From positions 189,863 through 221,862 of the forward strand of contig NC_013201.1 of NCBI RefSeq assembly GCF_000023965.1: 32,000 nt of DNA. The letters are read 5' to 3'. Below the pieces are notes generated by a model that did no database searches, was not told where the DNA came from, and saw only the letters and a program-made list of their open reading frames with translations. This document shows, piece after piece, positions 2,021-29,528 of this stretch (its first letter is position 1; each line of letters opens with the position of its first letter). The position numbers and the translations under genes are program-made. This DNA comes from Halomicrobium mukohataei DSM 12286. GTDB taxonomy: Archaea; Halobacteriota; Halobacteria; Halobacteriales; Haloarculaceae.

Positions 2021-2046
2021 TGTGCGAGACGCGAGCGCAGCGAGGC

Positions 2047-2483
2047 GCGACCGGAGGGAGCGACACGTGGGCAGCGAGGCCGACCAGCGAGAGGCCTCGA
2101 CGGACGCGAACGGGAGCGAACGGAGGGAGCGACACGTGGGCAGCGAGGCCGACCAGCGAGAGGCCTCGACGGACGCGAACGGGAGCGAACGGAGGGAGCG
2201 ACACGTGGGCAGCGAGGCCGACCAGCGAGAGGCCTCGACGGACGCGAACGGGAGCGAACGGAGGGAGCGACACGTGGGCAGCGAGGCCGACCAGCGAGAG
2301 GCCTCGACGGACGCGAACGGGAGCGAACGGAGGGAGCGACACGTGGGCAGCGAGGCCGACCAGCGAGAGGCCTCGACAGACGCGAACGGGAGCGAACGGA
2401 GGGAGCGACACGTGGGCAGCGAGGCCGACCAGCGAGAGGCCTCGACAGACGCGAACGGGAGCGAACGGAGGGAGCGACACGTG
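2047..2483. repeat. Tandem array, 69-bp unit x about 6.3
   Basis: GTG codons at 2067, 2136, 2205, 2274, 2343, 2412 and 2481 (period 69), each with GGAGGG 8 nt upstream. Units are identical except G>A at 2378 and 2447. Each unit contains the hairpin CGAGGCC-N11-GGCCTCG (first copy 2075-2099). The array is open in several frames on both strands. Confidence 0.97.
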
Positions 2484-2939
2484 AGCGACGACCGACATCC
2501 GCTGTTCGAGCCGCTGATCTTCGTCGGCGGCCTGATCTTCGGGTTCGGACTCGGGTTCAGTCAGATGGCGCGTCCGGAAGTGGTGCTGAACTTCCTCCAG
2601 TTCGAGGACTTCGGACTGCTGTTCGTCATGTTCGGCGCGGCCGTCGTCTCCGGGATCGCGTTCGCAGTGATGCCCCGGATTCGGAACGTGGCACCCCTGA
2701 CGGGCGACCGCTACGAGCGTCGGCTGAAGCCGTTCGACCGGAACGTCCTCGTCGGCGGAGCCATCTTCGGCGTCGGCTGGGGACTCTCGGGCATCTGTCC
2801 GGGTGCCGCGTACGCGAGCCTCGGCGTCGGCAACGTCACGATCCTCTGGGCGCTGGCCGGGATGTTCCTGGGCGCGTACGCTCAGGGGTACTGGCGGAGT
2901 CAGAATCGAGCGCGTGACACCGCCACCGGCGCGGACTAG
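2481..2939 (+). CDS. YeeE/YedE-related membrane protein, second half-transporter (DUF6691-like). The N-terminus could be extended by 1-6 repeat units.
   Basis: Hydrophobic core SDDRHPLFEPLIFVGGLIFGFGLGFSQM...GWGLSGICPGAAY. The minimal start is GTG 2481 with GGAGGG upstream. The ORF stays open in frame back to 2022 through the repeat array. Confidence 0.8.
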   Translation: MSDDRHPLFEPLIFVGGLIFGFGLGFSQMARPEVVLNFLQFEDFGLLFVMFGAAVVSGIAFAVMPRIRNVAPLTGDRYERRLKPFDRNVLVGGAIFGVGWGLSGICPGAAYASLGVGNVTILWALAGMFLGAYAQGYWRSQNRARDTATGAD

Positions 2940-13037: not shown

Positions 13038-14492
13038 ATGCCCTCCACGAGCAGTGAGCACCTGCCGACAGCGGCGGGGTTCGTTCCGGTCGCCCTCGCG
13101 AATCTGGTCCCGCTGGTCGGTGTCGTCCGACTGGGCTGGGAGCCAGAAACGCTGGTGATCGTCTACACGCTGGAAGTGCTGTTCGCGTTCCCGCTGGCGG
13201 GCGTGAAGGCGTTGTTCGCACAGCAACCGCCGCGGACCGACCACGAGGGGTCGACCGTGATCAGCGTTTCGGACGAGCTGACCCGAAAGCGCGGGAGCGT
13301 CACGGTGGTCCCGTGGCTGCCGCCGGTCTACCCGCGGAACGTGCCCTTCGCCCTCGCCGTCGGCGGTGTCGCCGCGTGGTTCGGGATCGCCATCGGCGTC
13401 GTGGTCAACGAGACGATCCCGATCACCGCGGTCGTCAGCCGCCCCGAGGTCCTGTTGAGTGTCGGCACACTGGTCGTCGGCCAGACCGTCGAGACCTGGC
13501 GGGACTTGCGGAACGGACACCACGAGACGACCACGCCGTACGCGGTGATCGAGACGCCGGCCCGGCAGGCGTTTTTCCTGGCGTTCGTCCTGTTCGTCGT
13601 CCCGGTGACGGCCGTGGCCGGCACGGGTGCGACGCTTGGCGTGTTCGTCGTCGTCAAGATCCTCGTGGAGTGGTCGGGCTATCGAGCGAGCCACGGCGAC
13701 GGCGGGCGACTTACCGGGTGGCTCTCCGGACCCGACGAGTCGGGCCGTGAGCGAGAGGTCGACGGCGTGCCCAAGGGTGAGCCCGACGCGCGCGTTCGGA
13801 CGGACGACCGCGCGGTGCTGTACACCGGCGCACTCCGGGCGCTGAGTGAGCGAGCCCCCGTCTACGCGACGTCCTTCGTCATCGTCTGGCTCTTCTCGCT
13901 CGTGATCCTCGGCGGGGAGGAGCCGTCCCGAGAAGTCGCGCTCGGCTCCGGTCTCGTCCTGGTCTGTCTGTTCGTCGCGCTCCTGGCGTTGCGTGTCGGG
14001 ACGTTCTACCTCAGGTACGGGCCGCTCGAATACCGTCGGTACGACGACCGAATCGTGGCGTACGACAGCCTGCTCGACGAGCCCCAGTGGTGGGCCTCGA
14101 TCGGGTCGCTGCGCGACGCCGAGGTCGCGTCCGATCGGCTCCCAGACCGGCTGCTGGGGACGCGCACGGTCTCGCTGGCGGCGGGCTGGGGCGACGATCC
14201 GCGGCGCTCGCTCGGACCCGTCGCCGACGCCGAGGCCCTCGTGACGGCGTTCGACCTGCCCGTCAGGACGACGGCACTCGCGCCCATCGATCGGCGGGTA
14301 GCCGCCGTCGTCGCGGGCTGTGTCGGCGTGATCGTCCTCGCTCCAGTGGCCGTCGTGCTCGTGCCGGCACTGTCCTCGTCGACGGCGCTGCTGTACGGGG
14401 TGTTCGTGCTGCCGTTCGCCACCCTCACGCTGCGGGGACTCTGGAAACGAGCGTATCCAGAGTCGAGCACAGCGGCCGGGAGCGACGTGTAG
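13038..14492 (+). CDS. Multi-pass membrane protein with a C-terminal bacterial-PH (YdbS/YdbT-like) segment; function unknown
   Basis: 484 aa with many TM helices. The segment FYLRYGPLEYRRYDDRIVAYD...LLGTRTVSL resembles membrane-flanked bPH domains. Codon usage matches the neighbouring genes. Confidence 0.7.
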   Translation: MPSTSSEHLPTAAGFVPVALANLVPLVGVVRLGWEPETLVIVYTLEVLFAFPLAGVKALFAQQPPRTDHEGSTVISVSDELTRKRGSVTVVPWLPPVYPRNVPFALAVGGVAAWFGIAIGVVVNETIPITAVVSRPEVLLSVGTLVVGQTVETWRDLRNGHHETTTPYAVIETPARQAFFLAFVLFVVPVTAVAGTGATLGVFVVVKILVEWSGYRASHGDGGRLTGWLSGPDESGREREVDGVPKGEPDARVRTDDRAVLYTGALRALSERAPVYATSFVIVWLFSLVILGGEEPSREVALGSGLVLVCLFVALLALRVGTFYLRYGPLEYRRYDDRIVAYDSLLDEPQWWASIGSLRDAEVASDRLPDRLLGTRTVSLAAGWGDDPRRSLGPVADAEALVTAFDLPVRTTALAPIDRRVAAVVAGCVGVIVLAPVAVVLVPALSSSTALLYGVFVLPFATLTLRGLWKRAYPESSTAAGSDV

Positions 14493-14599
14493 CGACAGCG
14501 GTGTGACTCGACCGGCTCGCCACGTCGTGGCGTCGACCGAGCGGACGGCCCACGGAGCGGCGGTACGTTCATACTCCAGACGGGCGAATCGGGAACACT

Positions 14600-28652: not shown

Positions 28653-29528
28653 ATGCAGATCGAACACCCCTACACCGGCGACGGGCGTTGGCTGCGAGGG
28701 AACCTCCACACGCACACGACGGAGACCGACGGCGCGGACACCGTCGAGGAAGTACTCGACGCCTACGAGTCGATCGGACACGACTTCCTCGCAATCTCTG
28801 ACCACGACCTGCTTGTCGATCCCGACCGGTATCGGGCGGACACGTCGCTGACGCTGTTGCCGGCCGTCGAAGTGACGGCGAACGGCACCCACGTGGTACA
28901 CGTCGGGGCGACGGCGGTCGTCGAGCCGCGGGCGGACCGCCAGGCCGTCGTCGACGACATCCGAGAACAGGGGGCGATGGCGATCCCCGCACACCCAAAC
29001 TGGGAGGCCGACTTCGACCACTGGCCACAGCGCCGGCTATCGGAGCTGACCGGCTATCACGGCATCGAGATCTACAACGGCAACATCGAGCGGTGCCCGG
29101 GCACGCCGCTGGCGACCGATCGGTGGGACCAGCTCCTGTCGGCCGGGCGGCGCGTCTGGGGCTTCGGAACGGACGACACCCACGACGCGGTCGATATCGG
29201 GAACGCCTGGACGGTCGTACAGGTGGCCGAGCGAACGCCCGCGGCGGTGCTCGAAGCCCTGACTGCCGGACAGACGTACGTCTCGACCGGCGTCGATATC
29301 GAGCGAATCGCGGTCGAGGACGGGAGCATCGAACTCGACGCGAGCGAGCGCGTGACGGCCCGTCTGGTGAGCGACTGGGGGCGGGTCCAGCGAACGAGAG
29401 CGGGCGAGACGGTCCGATTCCACCTGCCGGACGATCTGGTCTACGGACGGGAGCACAGCTACGTTCGAGTGGAATGTCGTGGCCGGGGCGACGACGCGGC
29501 CTGGACCCAGCCGTTCTACCTGGCATAG
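28653..29528 (+). CDS. PHP-domain / CehA-McbA-type metallohydrolase
   Basis: GNLHTHTTETDG (HxH) with SDHD and further His/Asp metal ligands. 291 aa. Confidence 0.72.
   Translation: MQIEHPYTGDGRWLRGNLHTHTTETDGADTVEEVLDAYESIGHDFLAISDHDLLVDPDRYRADTSLTLLPAVEVTANGTHVVHVGATAVVEPRADRQAVVDDIREQGAMAIPAHPNWEADFDHWPQRRLSELTGYHGIEIYNGNIERCPGTPLATDRWDQLLSAGRRVWGFGTDDTHDAVDIGNAWTVVQVAERTPAAVLEALTAGQTYVSTGVDIERIAVEDGSIELDASERVTARLVSDWGRVQRTRAGETVRFHLPDDLVYGREHSYVRVECRGRGDDAAWTQPFYLA

Follow-up and report, generated by a model that had tools for sequence, protein, structure and literature searches.

In Haloferax volcanii and E. coli, co-directional gene pairs whose stop and start codons overlap (ATGA or TGATG) are translated by termination-reinitiation (Huber et al. 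2019, 2023; PMC6728339, PMC10666635). In the accessible portions of these papers, short overlaps are enriched among the subunits of complexes (PMC6728339), an intergenic distance of ~20 nt nearly abolishes termination-reinitiation in H. volcanii (PMC10666635), and no relay of overlaps in series was found described (PMC6728339, PMC10666635). As far as those portions go, the junction between two YeeE/YedE half genes considered here is like such pairs in its 4-nt or 1-nt overlaps, which lie at both ends of a proposed relay ORF, in its co-directional genes for two parts of one membrane complex, and in the SD-like motif 5' of the downstream start; it is unlike them in having two overlaps in series, joined by an ORF of repeat DNA, with coupling that is predicted from sequence.

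A further parallel is the bicistronic design attributed to Mutalik et al., 2013, in which a short upstream cistron reportedly holds the SD sequence of the target gene and has its stop at that gene's start codon; ribosomes translating the cistron open up local structure and pass to the downstream start. As in this and other leader-cistron coupling, the proposed relay ORF contains an SD-like box and ends on the start of the downstream gene, but it would be natural, archaeal, 19-154 codons long and fed by reinitiation from the upstream gene. If the relay is real, it shows how two subunit genes keep translational lock-step after a repeat element hits their overlap: the element sequence becomes a throw-away ORF that hands ribosomes on, a natural counterpart of the engineered designs, and the Haloferax termination-reinitiation rules extend to a three-ORF chain.

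The window (the whole stretch of DNA analysed, 32,000 nt) carries a sulfur-transporter gene pair of the Halomicrobium mukohataei megaplasmid:

1463-2020, + strand: YeeE/YedE half A, 185 aa, stop TGA at 2018-2020 (PF04143 match)
2481-2939, + strand: YeeE/YedE half B (DUF6691), 152 aa, N-terminus VSDDRHPLF (PF20398 and PF04143 matches; RefSeq start)

The halves are adjacent, both match PF04143 and half B also matches PF20398, as in a split YeeE/YedE (Sulf_transp) transporter; in RefSeq, half A of the JP60 plasmid, identical in sequence, is annotated as a YeeE/YedE family protein. The YeeE-half operon is present in 63 haloarchaeal plasmid records, only 2 of which cover the array region described below. 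In most haloarchaea the halves overlap (ATGA or TAATG), and five species without an insertion show such junctions; on this comparison, the ancestral junction is an overlap with no spacer. The half B N-terminus VSDDRHPLF aligns with the N-terminal MSDRHPLF or MTDDRHPLF of orthologues that lack the insertion. Translational bypass (a hop from half A to half B) was considered and rejected: the take-off and landing codons next to the stop are mismatched, and the halves are separate proteins elsewhere.

Between the two halves lies a tandem array with the following features:

2015-2072, + strand: degenerate first unit, the 5' flank of the array (covariance model R1 24.9 bits, E=1.6e-4; junction comparison)
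2047-2483, + strand: tandem array, 6.3 copies of a 69-bp unit made up of hairpin, linker and tail (Tandem Repeats Finder, covariance model)
2075-2099, again at +69n (n=0..5), + strand: hairpin of unit 1, CGAGGCC-GACCAGCGAGA-GGCCTCG, 7-bp stem and N11 loop (fold -14 kcal/mol; family hairpin statistics and covariation)
2378 and 2447, + strand: G>A variant in units 5 and 6, the sole polymorphism of the array (read from sequence)
2467-2472, + strand: Shine-Dalgarno-like GGAGGG, its end 8 nt 5' of the half B GTG (read from sequence)

Tandem Repeats Finder reports a period of 69 with 6.3 copies, 99% matches, no indels and a score of 853. The covariance model finds six full units (2075-2141, 2144-2210, 2213-2279, 2282-2348, 2351-2417 and 2420-2486; 63.6-69.7 bits), and a 32-mer of the unit is found at 6 places in the window and in none of 100 shuffles. 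The units abut head-to-tail with no spacers between them, which is not the layout of a CRISPR array. GTG codons read from the sequence lie at 2067+69n (n=0..6), the last being 2481, and copies of GGAGGG lie at 2053+69n, each ending 8 nt 5' of an internal GTG. An SD-like box of this strength might also allow ribosomes to initiate at 2481 independently. The first-pass annotation, made from the window sequence, had described the array between the YeeE halves, its seven GTGs and their boxes, the single polymorphism and the 7-bp hairpin in each unit, and all of these stand. It had also taken the flanks of the array for diverged unit segments, rightly: the first ~36 nt of the degenerate first unit are common to Halorubrum-type spacers, after which the sequence joins the tail motif. 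Its suggestion that the array arose by duplication of the native intergenic region does not hold, given an ancestral overlap without spacer and a unit that comes from a dispersed family.

Sequence comparison shows that the 69-bp unit is no local invention but comes from a repeat family found dispersed in many haloarchaea. The family layout is a variable-stem hairpin with a conserved 11-nt purine loop, followed by a tail, GCGARCGGGAG-N13-CGACACGYGRGC; the GGAGGG box is part of the conserved tail GCGAACGGGAGCGAACGGAGGGAGCGACACGTG. Both H. salinisoli and H. urmianum have homologous units at unrelated loci, H. katesii alone has 10 loci with the strict family pattern, and a search of species-representative genomes with the tail pattern gave 88 stretches, 86 of them from Halobacteria and from >10 genera. 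The family covariance model has 146 matches in 77 loci. A perfect stem of at least 7 bp lies directly 5' of the tail in 57/107 units (53%) vs 3.3% of shuffles. Stems differ completely, yet the loop has 11 nt (GA-N-C-G-N-A-G-N-GA) in nearly every case, and the covariation score, for units selected for having hairpins, is 0.67 vs at most 0.12 in both controls. The 11-nt loop was rejected as a K-turn or K-loop on inspection, there being no GA at the required 5' position.

Several classes of short repeats resemble this family. The PATEs, terminal-only PATEs and small mobile repeats of Haloquadratum walsbyi are 52-110 bp, transposase-free, palindromic and dispersed (Dyall-Smith et al. 2011, PMC3119063). 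The family shares with them the short dispersed palindrome, many copies at unrelated loci having a hairpin-forming core, and just as some H. walsbyi elements insert in the palindromes of others, Halorubrum spacers have extra hairpin modules nested in the loop of an outer hairpin; compared by description only, the family is unlike them in having stems that vary within a genome, a conserved loop, head-to-tail arrays and a distribution over many genera. The REP/BIME elements of bacteria are dispersed hairpin repeats found mostly just 3' of genes, and REP stems are conserved within a genome. Our family likewise consists of dispersed hairpins mostly downstream of genes, but in an archaeal host and with a conserved loop and free stem: stems vary in H. 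katesii, even within one array, unlike those of REPs. Rickettsia palindromic elements include copies carried in frame within protein-coding genes, which stay intact, and family copies are similarly in frame inside UxaA, a DExH helicase and half B.

No annotated transposase was found under or beside family matches on plasmids. A BLAST search of plasmids with the canonical 4-unit array returned only 4 records, also without transposase context; BLAST recovers few family copies because the stems vary. Rfam gave no gathering-score match in the window or in 15 family loci, and none relevant at E<=1-10 (array included). The family was not found described in the open-access literature searched by literal loop or tail sequence and by the topics of haloarchaeal REPs, MITEs and dispersed hairpins. 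A paper on G-quadruplex repeats mentions a different repeat, (GGGCGA)n, in another H. mukohataei strain. Whatever its function, a hairpin-repeat family with conserved loop and free stems that has spread across haloarchaea, is frequent beside stop codons and is tolerated inside proteins deserves a census of its own.

The distribution of the family bears on whether the unit acts at the RNA or DNA level. By crude gene calls, 75/87 non-YeeE copies are intergenic, and 50 are co-oriented with the upstream gene vs 21 opposite, many starting 0-5 nt past its stop; arrays of 2-6 diverged units are common. Together with an 11-nt loop conserved on varying but complementary stems, and with the nested Halorubrum hairpins, this is consistent with a protein-binding, processing or stabilising element between cistrons, or a recombination or mobility site, whose function the array multiplies. 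However, the orientation bias is only moderate, no Rfam family matches, and folding of the whole array hardly beats shuffles (z -1.3 and -2.0); such an element would also leave the conservation of reading phase at the YeeE junction (below) unexplained. We consider this account possible though clearly less probable than the one we favor, with which it is compatible since it allows a relay ORF. One large structured RNA across the array was dropped as a candidate given these modest z-scores; of the structured 460-nt spacer RNA that had been offered as an alternative for this array, the consistently predicted hairpins of individual units are what survives.

A broader and tentative proposal is that the family is a previously undescribed class of archaeal elements, with a purine-rich, SD-like 11-nt loop, a free stem and a conserved tail, that may be mobile or engage the ribosome or a dedicated protein and would colonise stop/start neighbourhoods across Halobacteria. 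At coupled junctions it might survive in only two forms, a relay ORF or a hydrophilic linker in frame, a pattern seen at YeeE and UxaA, and the largest expansion of such a domesticated relay would be the array of H. mukohataei. At both insertion sites, YeeE and UxaA, there is a duplication of RTGAGC or GAGCC, a motif that is also the element's own end. In H. salinisoli UxaA in-frame family units follow the ATGA start.

The family element is present at the YeeE-half junction in at least five genera, including Halorubrum, Haloarcula (H. argentinensis), Halosimplex, Halovenus and Halomicrobium, whereas the first-pass annotation knew of no described equivalent in archaeal YeeE operons. We compared 21 distinct spacers in ten length classes (55, 58, 67, 82, 121, 127, 130, 184, 199 and 460 nt). 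Every length is 1 mod 3; in all 21 the +1 frame relative to half B is stop-free until a TGA that overlaps the half B GTG, and a start codon overlaps the half A stop in every one, in two different arrangements (TAATG at all four loci whose half A stop is TAA). Frame 0 has stops in 10/21 spacers and frame +2 in 11/21, so the conserved frame is not the one of the array GTGs on which the first-pass annotation had built. In the window the conserved frame corresponds to:

2017-2484, + strand: proposed relay ORF, +1 frame, 154 aa; start GTG 2017 (GTGA) or ATG 2020 (TGATG) overlapping the half A stop, end TGA 2482-2484 overlapping GTG 2481 (same layout in 21/21 spacers)

Co-directional ORFs thus meet in a 4-nt or 1-nt stop/start overlap at both ends (GTGA/TGATG at 2017-2022, GTGA at 2481-2484) in 21/21 junctions. 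The internal units of the array read GTGGGC (TGG in the relay frame) vs GTGAGC (TGA) in the last unit. T makes up only 2 of the 69 nt on the + strand of the unit, and the array is stop-free in both other + frames and all three minus-strand frames, so open frames at the array itself are no evidence; the phase argument depends on some 7-8 independent indels among the spacers, counted by eye. One minus-strand frame is also open in 21/21 spacers. An antisense ORF at 1689-2498 was rejected: though open, it extends over the end of half A, scores poorly for codon usage and lacks exact stop/start overlaps.

The explanation that we favor, with somewhat better than even confidence, is that a family unit inserted in the ancestral YeeE overlap and was tandemly amplified, that a relay ORF keeps the halves translationally coupled, and that copy number is near-neutral. 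The element would have landed in an ancestral ATGA-type overlap between the half genes. Comparison of the junctions shows that the insertion duplicated the RTGAGC start motif and that its tail supplied half B with a new SD-like GGAGGG and a new GTG start. The old start codon, still overlapping the half A stop, would now open a short ORF that crosses the insert in the +1 frame and ends at the TGA inside the GTGA of the new half B start. Ribosomes ending half A would reinitiate on the relay ORF, unwind the hairpins, terminate at the half B start and reinitiate there; by this serial reinitiation the halves would stay coupled despite an insert of 55-460 nt. In-frame insertions at the half B N-terminus in other lineages (below), and the in-frame units of UxaA, would be a parallel solution to the same problem.

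The main competing view of the phase pattern is that the spacer is untranslated and half B initiates independently from its SD-like box and GTG, the pattern being a by-product of a T-poor, partly 3-periodic family sequence and shared ancestry, and copy number neutral junk. Consistent with this view, GGAGGG lies at a suitable distance from GTG 2481, frame +1 is open in 25-85% of trials with shuffled spacers, the 21 spacers stem from one or a few insertion events, and unit spacing in intergenic family arrays, measured from covariance-model matches, is a multiple of 3 in 20/42 (48%), above one third. Yet all ten length classes are in one phase, against the 20/42 of the intergenic arrays taken as a control, and at least 7 independent indels that are all multiples of 3 have a likelihood of ~0.5^7 even with the family bias. 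The start overlapping the half A stop is kept in 21/21 junctions and in two arrangements, the two frames that a relay does not need carry stops in about half of the spacers, and overlap-dependent coupling is, in the accessible portions of the Haloferax studies, the rule for such haloarchaeal subunit pairs (PMC10666635, PMC6728339). We regard independent initiation across an untranslated spacer as rather unlikely.

Could the relay ORF instead encode a functional small protein, a third subunit or a regulator of the transporter? It is kept in 21/21 junctions, and its product always ends in ...TGA(T/N)GG(S/R)DT. These C-terminal residues, however, coincide with the conserved nucleotide tail of the repeat, the product ranges from 19 to 154 aa, and the ORF is absent from most YeeE operons. 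Variable sites by relay codon position 1, 2 and 3 are 15/36, 18/37 and 17/37, with no excess of third-position changes; this lack of codon periodicity suggests that the relay frame is kept and not the peptide. A domain search with the relay ORF gave no match. The peptide is basic and Arg/Thr/Gly-rich, an atypical composition for a halophile. A functional product is thus highly improbable, and the relay peptide is probably a by-product.

The first-pass annotation had proposed that copy number tunes either coupling or the N-terminal length of half B. The array does appear to bear on the coupling of the halves; the second part would have half B initiate at GTG 2022 or at one or other of the seven array GTGs in its frame, and gain 0-6 charged 23-aa peptides, with copy number setting the length of the tail. 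Frame 0 is open over 2022-2939 with GGAGGG 8 nt 5' of each GTG, and it is the most gene-like of the three frames by codon usage of the 69-nt unit (score +1.4, GC3 0.87, vs -11.1 and 0.74 for the relay frame). Five family copies that lie in frame within coding sequence were read by eye (in UxaA, in the Natronorubrum DExH helicase, L025 and L094), and in all of them the hairpin is in the frame-0 equivalent. Half B extensions are known in other lineages as in-frame N-terminal insertions that start exactly on the 4-nt overlap (L110 family-like; L111, L113 and L114 low-complexity). A C>T change in H. mukohataei and H. katesii creates the frame-0 GTG 2022, 1 nt past the half A stop, so a 305-aa extended half B is possible in the H. 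mukohataei strain. The start of half B is not the same in all public annotations: that of NCBI for a metagenome-assembled genome (P0001) begins one unit upstream, and the repeat family therefore matters for gene-start annotation.

Against such extensions, a frame-0 stop lies 50-80 nt 5' of the GTG in 10/21 spacers, that of the closest relative LC1Hm included, and in five short single-copy spacers where frame 0 is open, reading by hand found no start codon in that frame besides the half B GTG. For these two reasons N-terminal extension is not the conserved feature. The peptide is not conserved among H. mukohataei, LC1Hm and L037, VSDDRHPLF matches the true N-terminus of insertion-free orthologues, and the difference between TGG in internal units and TGA in the terminal one, which would not matter to an extension, keeps the +1 frame running. 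Kramer et al. are said to have reported in 2014 that initiation on Haloferax 5' leaders does not proceed by the SD mechanism, which also counts against initiation at the array GTGs. We find extension of half B improbable, more so than an untranslated spacer.

Comparison of this junction among relatives brought out a difference in copy number: H. mukohataei has 6.3 units, H. katesii 2.3, Halomicrobium sp. LC1Hm 1.3 and a metagenome contig (L104) 0.3, all apart by exact multiples of 69 nt. High-identity head-to-tail copies (6.3, 99%) whose number varies among related genomes make this a tandem repeat of the VNTR type. It resembles minisatellite loci in its perfect repeat and whole-unit differences between close relatives, and is unlike them in that its unit comes from a structured family with dispersed copies and sits in a putatively translated junction.

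Collapse of the array to one unit, which the first-pass annotation had named as a way to refute its reading, is unlikely, as two different records agree on 6.3 copies. The window is identical to the strain JP60 plasmid CP039376.1 (100% identity over 6.4 kb, array included) and spans the origin of CP039376.1, and so is from a different record. That the array is an assembly artefact of a true one-unit locus might be suspected from short-read Logan contigs, which end inside the array and are thus uninformative on copy number. Besides the agreement of the two records, the relatives with 2.3, 1.3 and 0.3 copies in clean 69-nt steps argue against it, as does a variant in two adjacent units, which is not expected from collapsed or expanded reads; we give the artefact almost no credence.

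Since 69 nt is 23 codons, the array cannot switch reading frame and is no classical contingency locus, although it had been suggested that it may be of that type; all observed copy-number variants keep phase and the same half B start, which is not phase-variable behavior. Copy number would shift by slippage or unequal recombination between units, and a unit of 23 codons, together with TGG in internal and TGA in terminal units of the relay frame, would make such changes tolerable. We take copy number to be near-neutral, tolerated variation and not a switch. Both H. katesii units carry the A form of the variant at 2378 and 2447.

The two genes that flank the array, here half A (1463-2020) and half B (2481-2939, DUF6691, start codon GTG 2481), are YeeE/YedE-type transporter halves, as the first-pass annotation had held; PF04143 is matched, with PF20398 on half B. 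TusA and DsrE are encoded upstream in the same sulfur operon, which also encodes a rhodanese-MBL protein, a PiT/CysP-like permease, a TrmB-type regulator and a thioredoxin. Tandem Repeats Finder places the array at 2047-2483 (period 69, 6.3 copies, 99% matches, score 853), and a 32-mer from the unit occurs six times in the window versus never in 100 shuffles. The seven GTG codons reported at 2067 + 69n, the GGAGGG boxes that each end 8 nt upstream of them, the two G>A changes (2378, 2447) and a 7-bp hairpin per unit can all be read from the sequence, and the array observation as a whole is confirmed. All six frames are free of stop codons across the array; since the unit is T-poor (2 T per 69 nt), these open frames carry no evidential weight. 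The window is haloarchaeal megaplasmid DNA with 100% identity across 6.4 kb to the Halomicrobium mukohataei JP60 plasmid CP039376.1, and because it crosses the origin of that record, it represents a separate record of the same plasmid.

On sequence comparison, the ancestral half A/half B junction has no spacer. It is an ATGA or a TAATG overlap in five cases (Halomicrobium salinisoli, H. urmianum, Salinirubellus, Haloarcula litorea, Halobacterium salinarum), where half B begins MSDRHPLF, MTDDRHPLF or MADRHPLF. Of the haloarchaeal plasmid records carrying the operon, only 2/63 cover the array region. Insert-bearing junctions have the old RTGAGC on one side of the insert and a new GTGAGC on the other. 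An origin of the array from the native intergenic region, as first proposed, is not borne out, the unit belonging to a dispersed haloarchaeal repeat family (hairpin, linker and conserved tail). Nor is the array without equivalent in archaeal YeeE operons: a family insert occupies the same junction in seven Halorubrum species, Halobacterium rubrum, Haloarcula argentinensis, Halosimplex carlsbadense, Halovenus, one MAG and eight metagenome contigs. The suggested copy-number variation is found among relatives, in whole-unit steps. H. katesii DSM 19301 has 2.3 units in a 184-nt spacer (460 - 4 x 69), Halomicrobium sp. LC1Hm has 1.3 units preceded by older diverged modules (spacer 199 nt), and the 130-nt spacer of a metagenome contig equals that of LC1Hm with exactly one unit fewer. 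The units of LC1Hm and H. mukohataei are ~2 nt apart (~97% identity by eye), versus 89.6% identity over the whole queried region with flanking genes, and the LC1Hm half B protein is closer to those of Salinirubellus and Haloarcula litorea than to that of H. mukohataei; this contrast between insert and surroundings hints at exchange of, or strong constraint on, the insert.

Ten length classes (55-460 nt) are represented among 21 distinct spacers, and what these YeeE junctions keep is the phase, not the peptide. Counted from the half A stop, the half B start lies at a distance of 1 mod 3 in 21/21 (at least seven independent indels, counted by eye, in a family with some intrinsic 3-nt bias). The half A stop is always overlapped by a start codon (ATGA, GTGA, TGATG or TAATG, the last at 4/4 loci where half A ends in TAA), and the first stop in the +1 frame is in every case the TGA contained in half B's GTGA. 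Unit spacing is a multiple of 3 in 20/42 cases in intergenic family arrays versus 9/10 in arrays inside ORFs. Variable sites in the 121-135-nt ORFs are spread evenly over the codon positions (15/36, 18/37, 17/37), and a domain search with both junction peptides gave no credible match. Internal units of the Halomicrobium arrays and that of locus L037 read GTGGGC (TGG in +1) and the last unit GTGAGC (TGA), so that the +1 frame continues through each added unit. Frame 0, that of half B, in which the array had first been read, is the wrong one: it contains stops in 10/21 spacers (frame +2 in 11/21), and in five short single-copy spacers read by hand the open frame 0 has no start codon except that of half B. 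A 305-aa extended half B is nevertheless possible in H. mukohataei and H. katesii, starting from GTG 2022, which lies in frame 0, 1 nt past the half A stop. The coding score of the 69-nt unit speaks for frame 0 and against a relay through +1 (frame 0, +1.4, GC3 0.87; frame +1, -11.1, GC3 0.74), and by eye five in-frame copies (UxaA, the Natronorubrum helicase, L025, L094) read the hairpin in the frame-0 equivalent.

Two studies of Haloferax volcanii (PMC10666635, PMC6728339) describe strict coupling of overlapping gene pairs via termination-reinitiation, its near abolition by a ~20-nt spacer, and an enrichment of overlaps among complex subunits. An insert of at least 55 nt should thus uncouple the transporter halves unless ribosomes are carried across. 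The insert forms an ORF linking two canonical overlaps, a layout that fits what a ribosome relay needs, and ribosomes may be carried over it from half A to half B. Half B could also be initiated independently at 2481 from an SD-like box; the tail of junction copies is CGACACGTGAGC, the source of the half B GGAGGG box and GTG, where intergenic copies read CGACACGCGAGC. Judged from the compared junctions, the view that fits the array best is of an expansion tolerated within a putative conserved relay ORF, itself made from a dispersed hairpin-repeat element. The earlier interpretation holds in that copy number varies and the array bears on coupling, and fails on frame, origin and uniqueness. The array falls under kinds already known, dispersed palindromic repeats and termination-reinitiation coupling.

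Other lineages show a second solution. In four of them half B homologues are longer by 15-40 residues at the N-terminus and have their start precisely at the 4-nt half A overlap; the DNA of one (L110) is family-like. The ATGA start of UxaA likewise leads in frame into its arrays. Together with the proposed YeeE relay ORF, these extensions suggest that insertions at coupled junctions seem to persist in the two phases that keep translation continuous. The L110 extension (901-1010) has family-like GAGCGA motifs and scores 13.9 bits with the covariance model of the family; those at the L111, L113 and L114 gene starts are low-complexity. The half B start differs among public annotations, database protein P0001 starting one repeat unit upstream.

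A perfect stem of at least 7 bp lies directly upstream of the tail in 57/107 distinct units versus 3.3% of shuffles. Loop length is almost always 11 nt (GAGCGAAGCGA, GACCGCAGGGA or GAACGGAGTGA), and the stems have no sequence in common. In 44 aligned units, preselected for the hairpin (57/107 being the unbiased figure), 94.8% of cells pair, 101 cells show two-sided changes, and the covariation score is 0.67 versus ≤0.12 in shuffled and slid controls. The canonical intergenic unit runs TAG, hairpin 1, TTGATT, hairpin 2, the last in the form GCGA-ACGGN-loop-N'CCGT-GAGC. Whole hairpins differ between two strains of a single species, and family modules are nested inside loops, which points to recombination or mobility and not to gradual compensatory change. 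Among the junction spacers of L018, L027, L030, L085, L089, L101, L105 and L109, those of 121-130 nt hold two further hairpin modules within the loop of an outer hairpin, CGAGACGC...GCGTCTCG, while in 55-58-nt spacers the loop of the same hairpin is just 2-4 nt; loops thus seem to be the sites where new modules insert as the family grows.

With the array as query, a sensitive search of plasmids recovered homologous 69-75-nt units at unrelated sites in H. salinisoli and H. urmianum, part of them in intergenic DNA 3' of an SDR gene. The tail pattern GCGARCGGGAG-N(11-16)-CGACACGYGRGC matched 88 stretches in one-genome-per-species contigs, 86 from Halobacteria (Halomicrobium, Halarchaeum, Halospeciosus, Halorarius, Halorubrum, Natronorubrum, Natronomonas, Salinarchaeum, Haloarcula, Halosimplex, Halovenus and MAGs) and two bacterial, which we take as chance. 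Within the window, the covariance model, built from the 44 hairpin-bearing units, recovers the array alone (64-70 bits for six units, 25 bits for a degenerate first one); 14436-14499 and 29339-29401 are marginal matches (14.9 and 13.5 bits, E = 0.03-0.05). Elsewhere it gives 146 matches at 77 other loci, often arrays of 2-6 diverged units. By a crude gene caller, 75/87 non-YeeE copies are intergenic (50 in the orientation of the upstream gene, 21 opposite), many hairpins start 0-5 nt past the upstream stop, and copies within ORFs are all sense (12/12). At many loci, L099 (3660-3945, minus strand) among them, intergenic arrays directly follow the stop codon of a co-oriented gene. The linkers of each unit carry TAG and TGA, at positions replaced in copies at gene junctions or inside ORFs; several apparent TAG stops at L021 and L025 are ATGACTAGC gene starts. 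Rfam gave no match, and literal-sequence and keyword searches of open-access papers found no description of the family, the nearest described classes being PATEs and the small mobile repeats of Haloquadratum (PMC3119063).

In the UxaA large subunit of H. salinisoli, family units follow the ATGA start immediately and in frame; neither their number nor their stem sequences are the same in the two strains.

UxaA insertions in two H. salinisoli strains, lengths relative to H. urmianum
L012, 3745-4007, minus strand: +79 aa
L013, 2522-2662: +38 aa

One unit is translated in frame in a DExH-box helicase of four Natronorubrum genomes (L015, L032, L034, L088; e.g., L088 5851-5917, minus strand), between LVLWNPPP and an acidic linker. 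Database protein P0022 (313 aa, 648-kb contig) joins half A-like and half B-like parts by an Arg/Gly-rich linker; either a gene fusion or a frameshift overlooked in annotation may account for it. A further 35-nt hairpin-forming element, TTCCGCGAGCCCTGCCTCGCAGGCTCGGCAGGACG, has identical copies at 692-726 and 878-912 of the window, in frame in the rhodanese-MBL gene (+15 and +16 aa, ..SASPASQARQD..); the LC1Hm orthologue has neither. MBL genes on plasmids of Halolamina, Natrinema and Haloarcula contain this ~33-nt element too, as do a phosphopentomutase gene of Halobacterium zhouii and unannotated stretches of other haloarchaeal plasmids; it is a second dispersed mini-hairpin family tolerated within ORFs.
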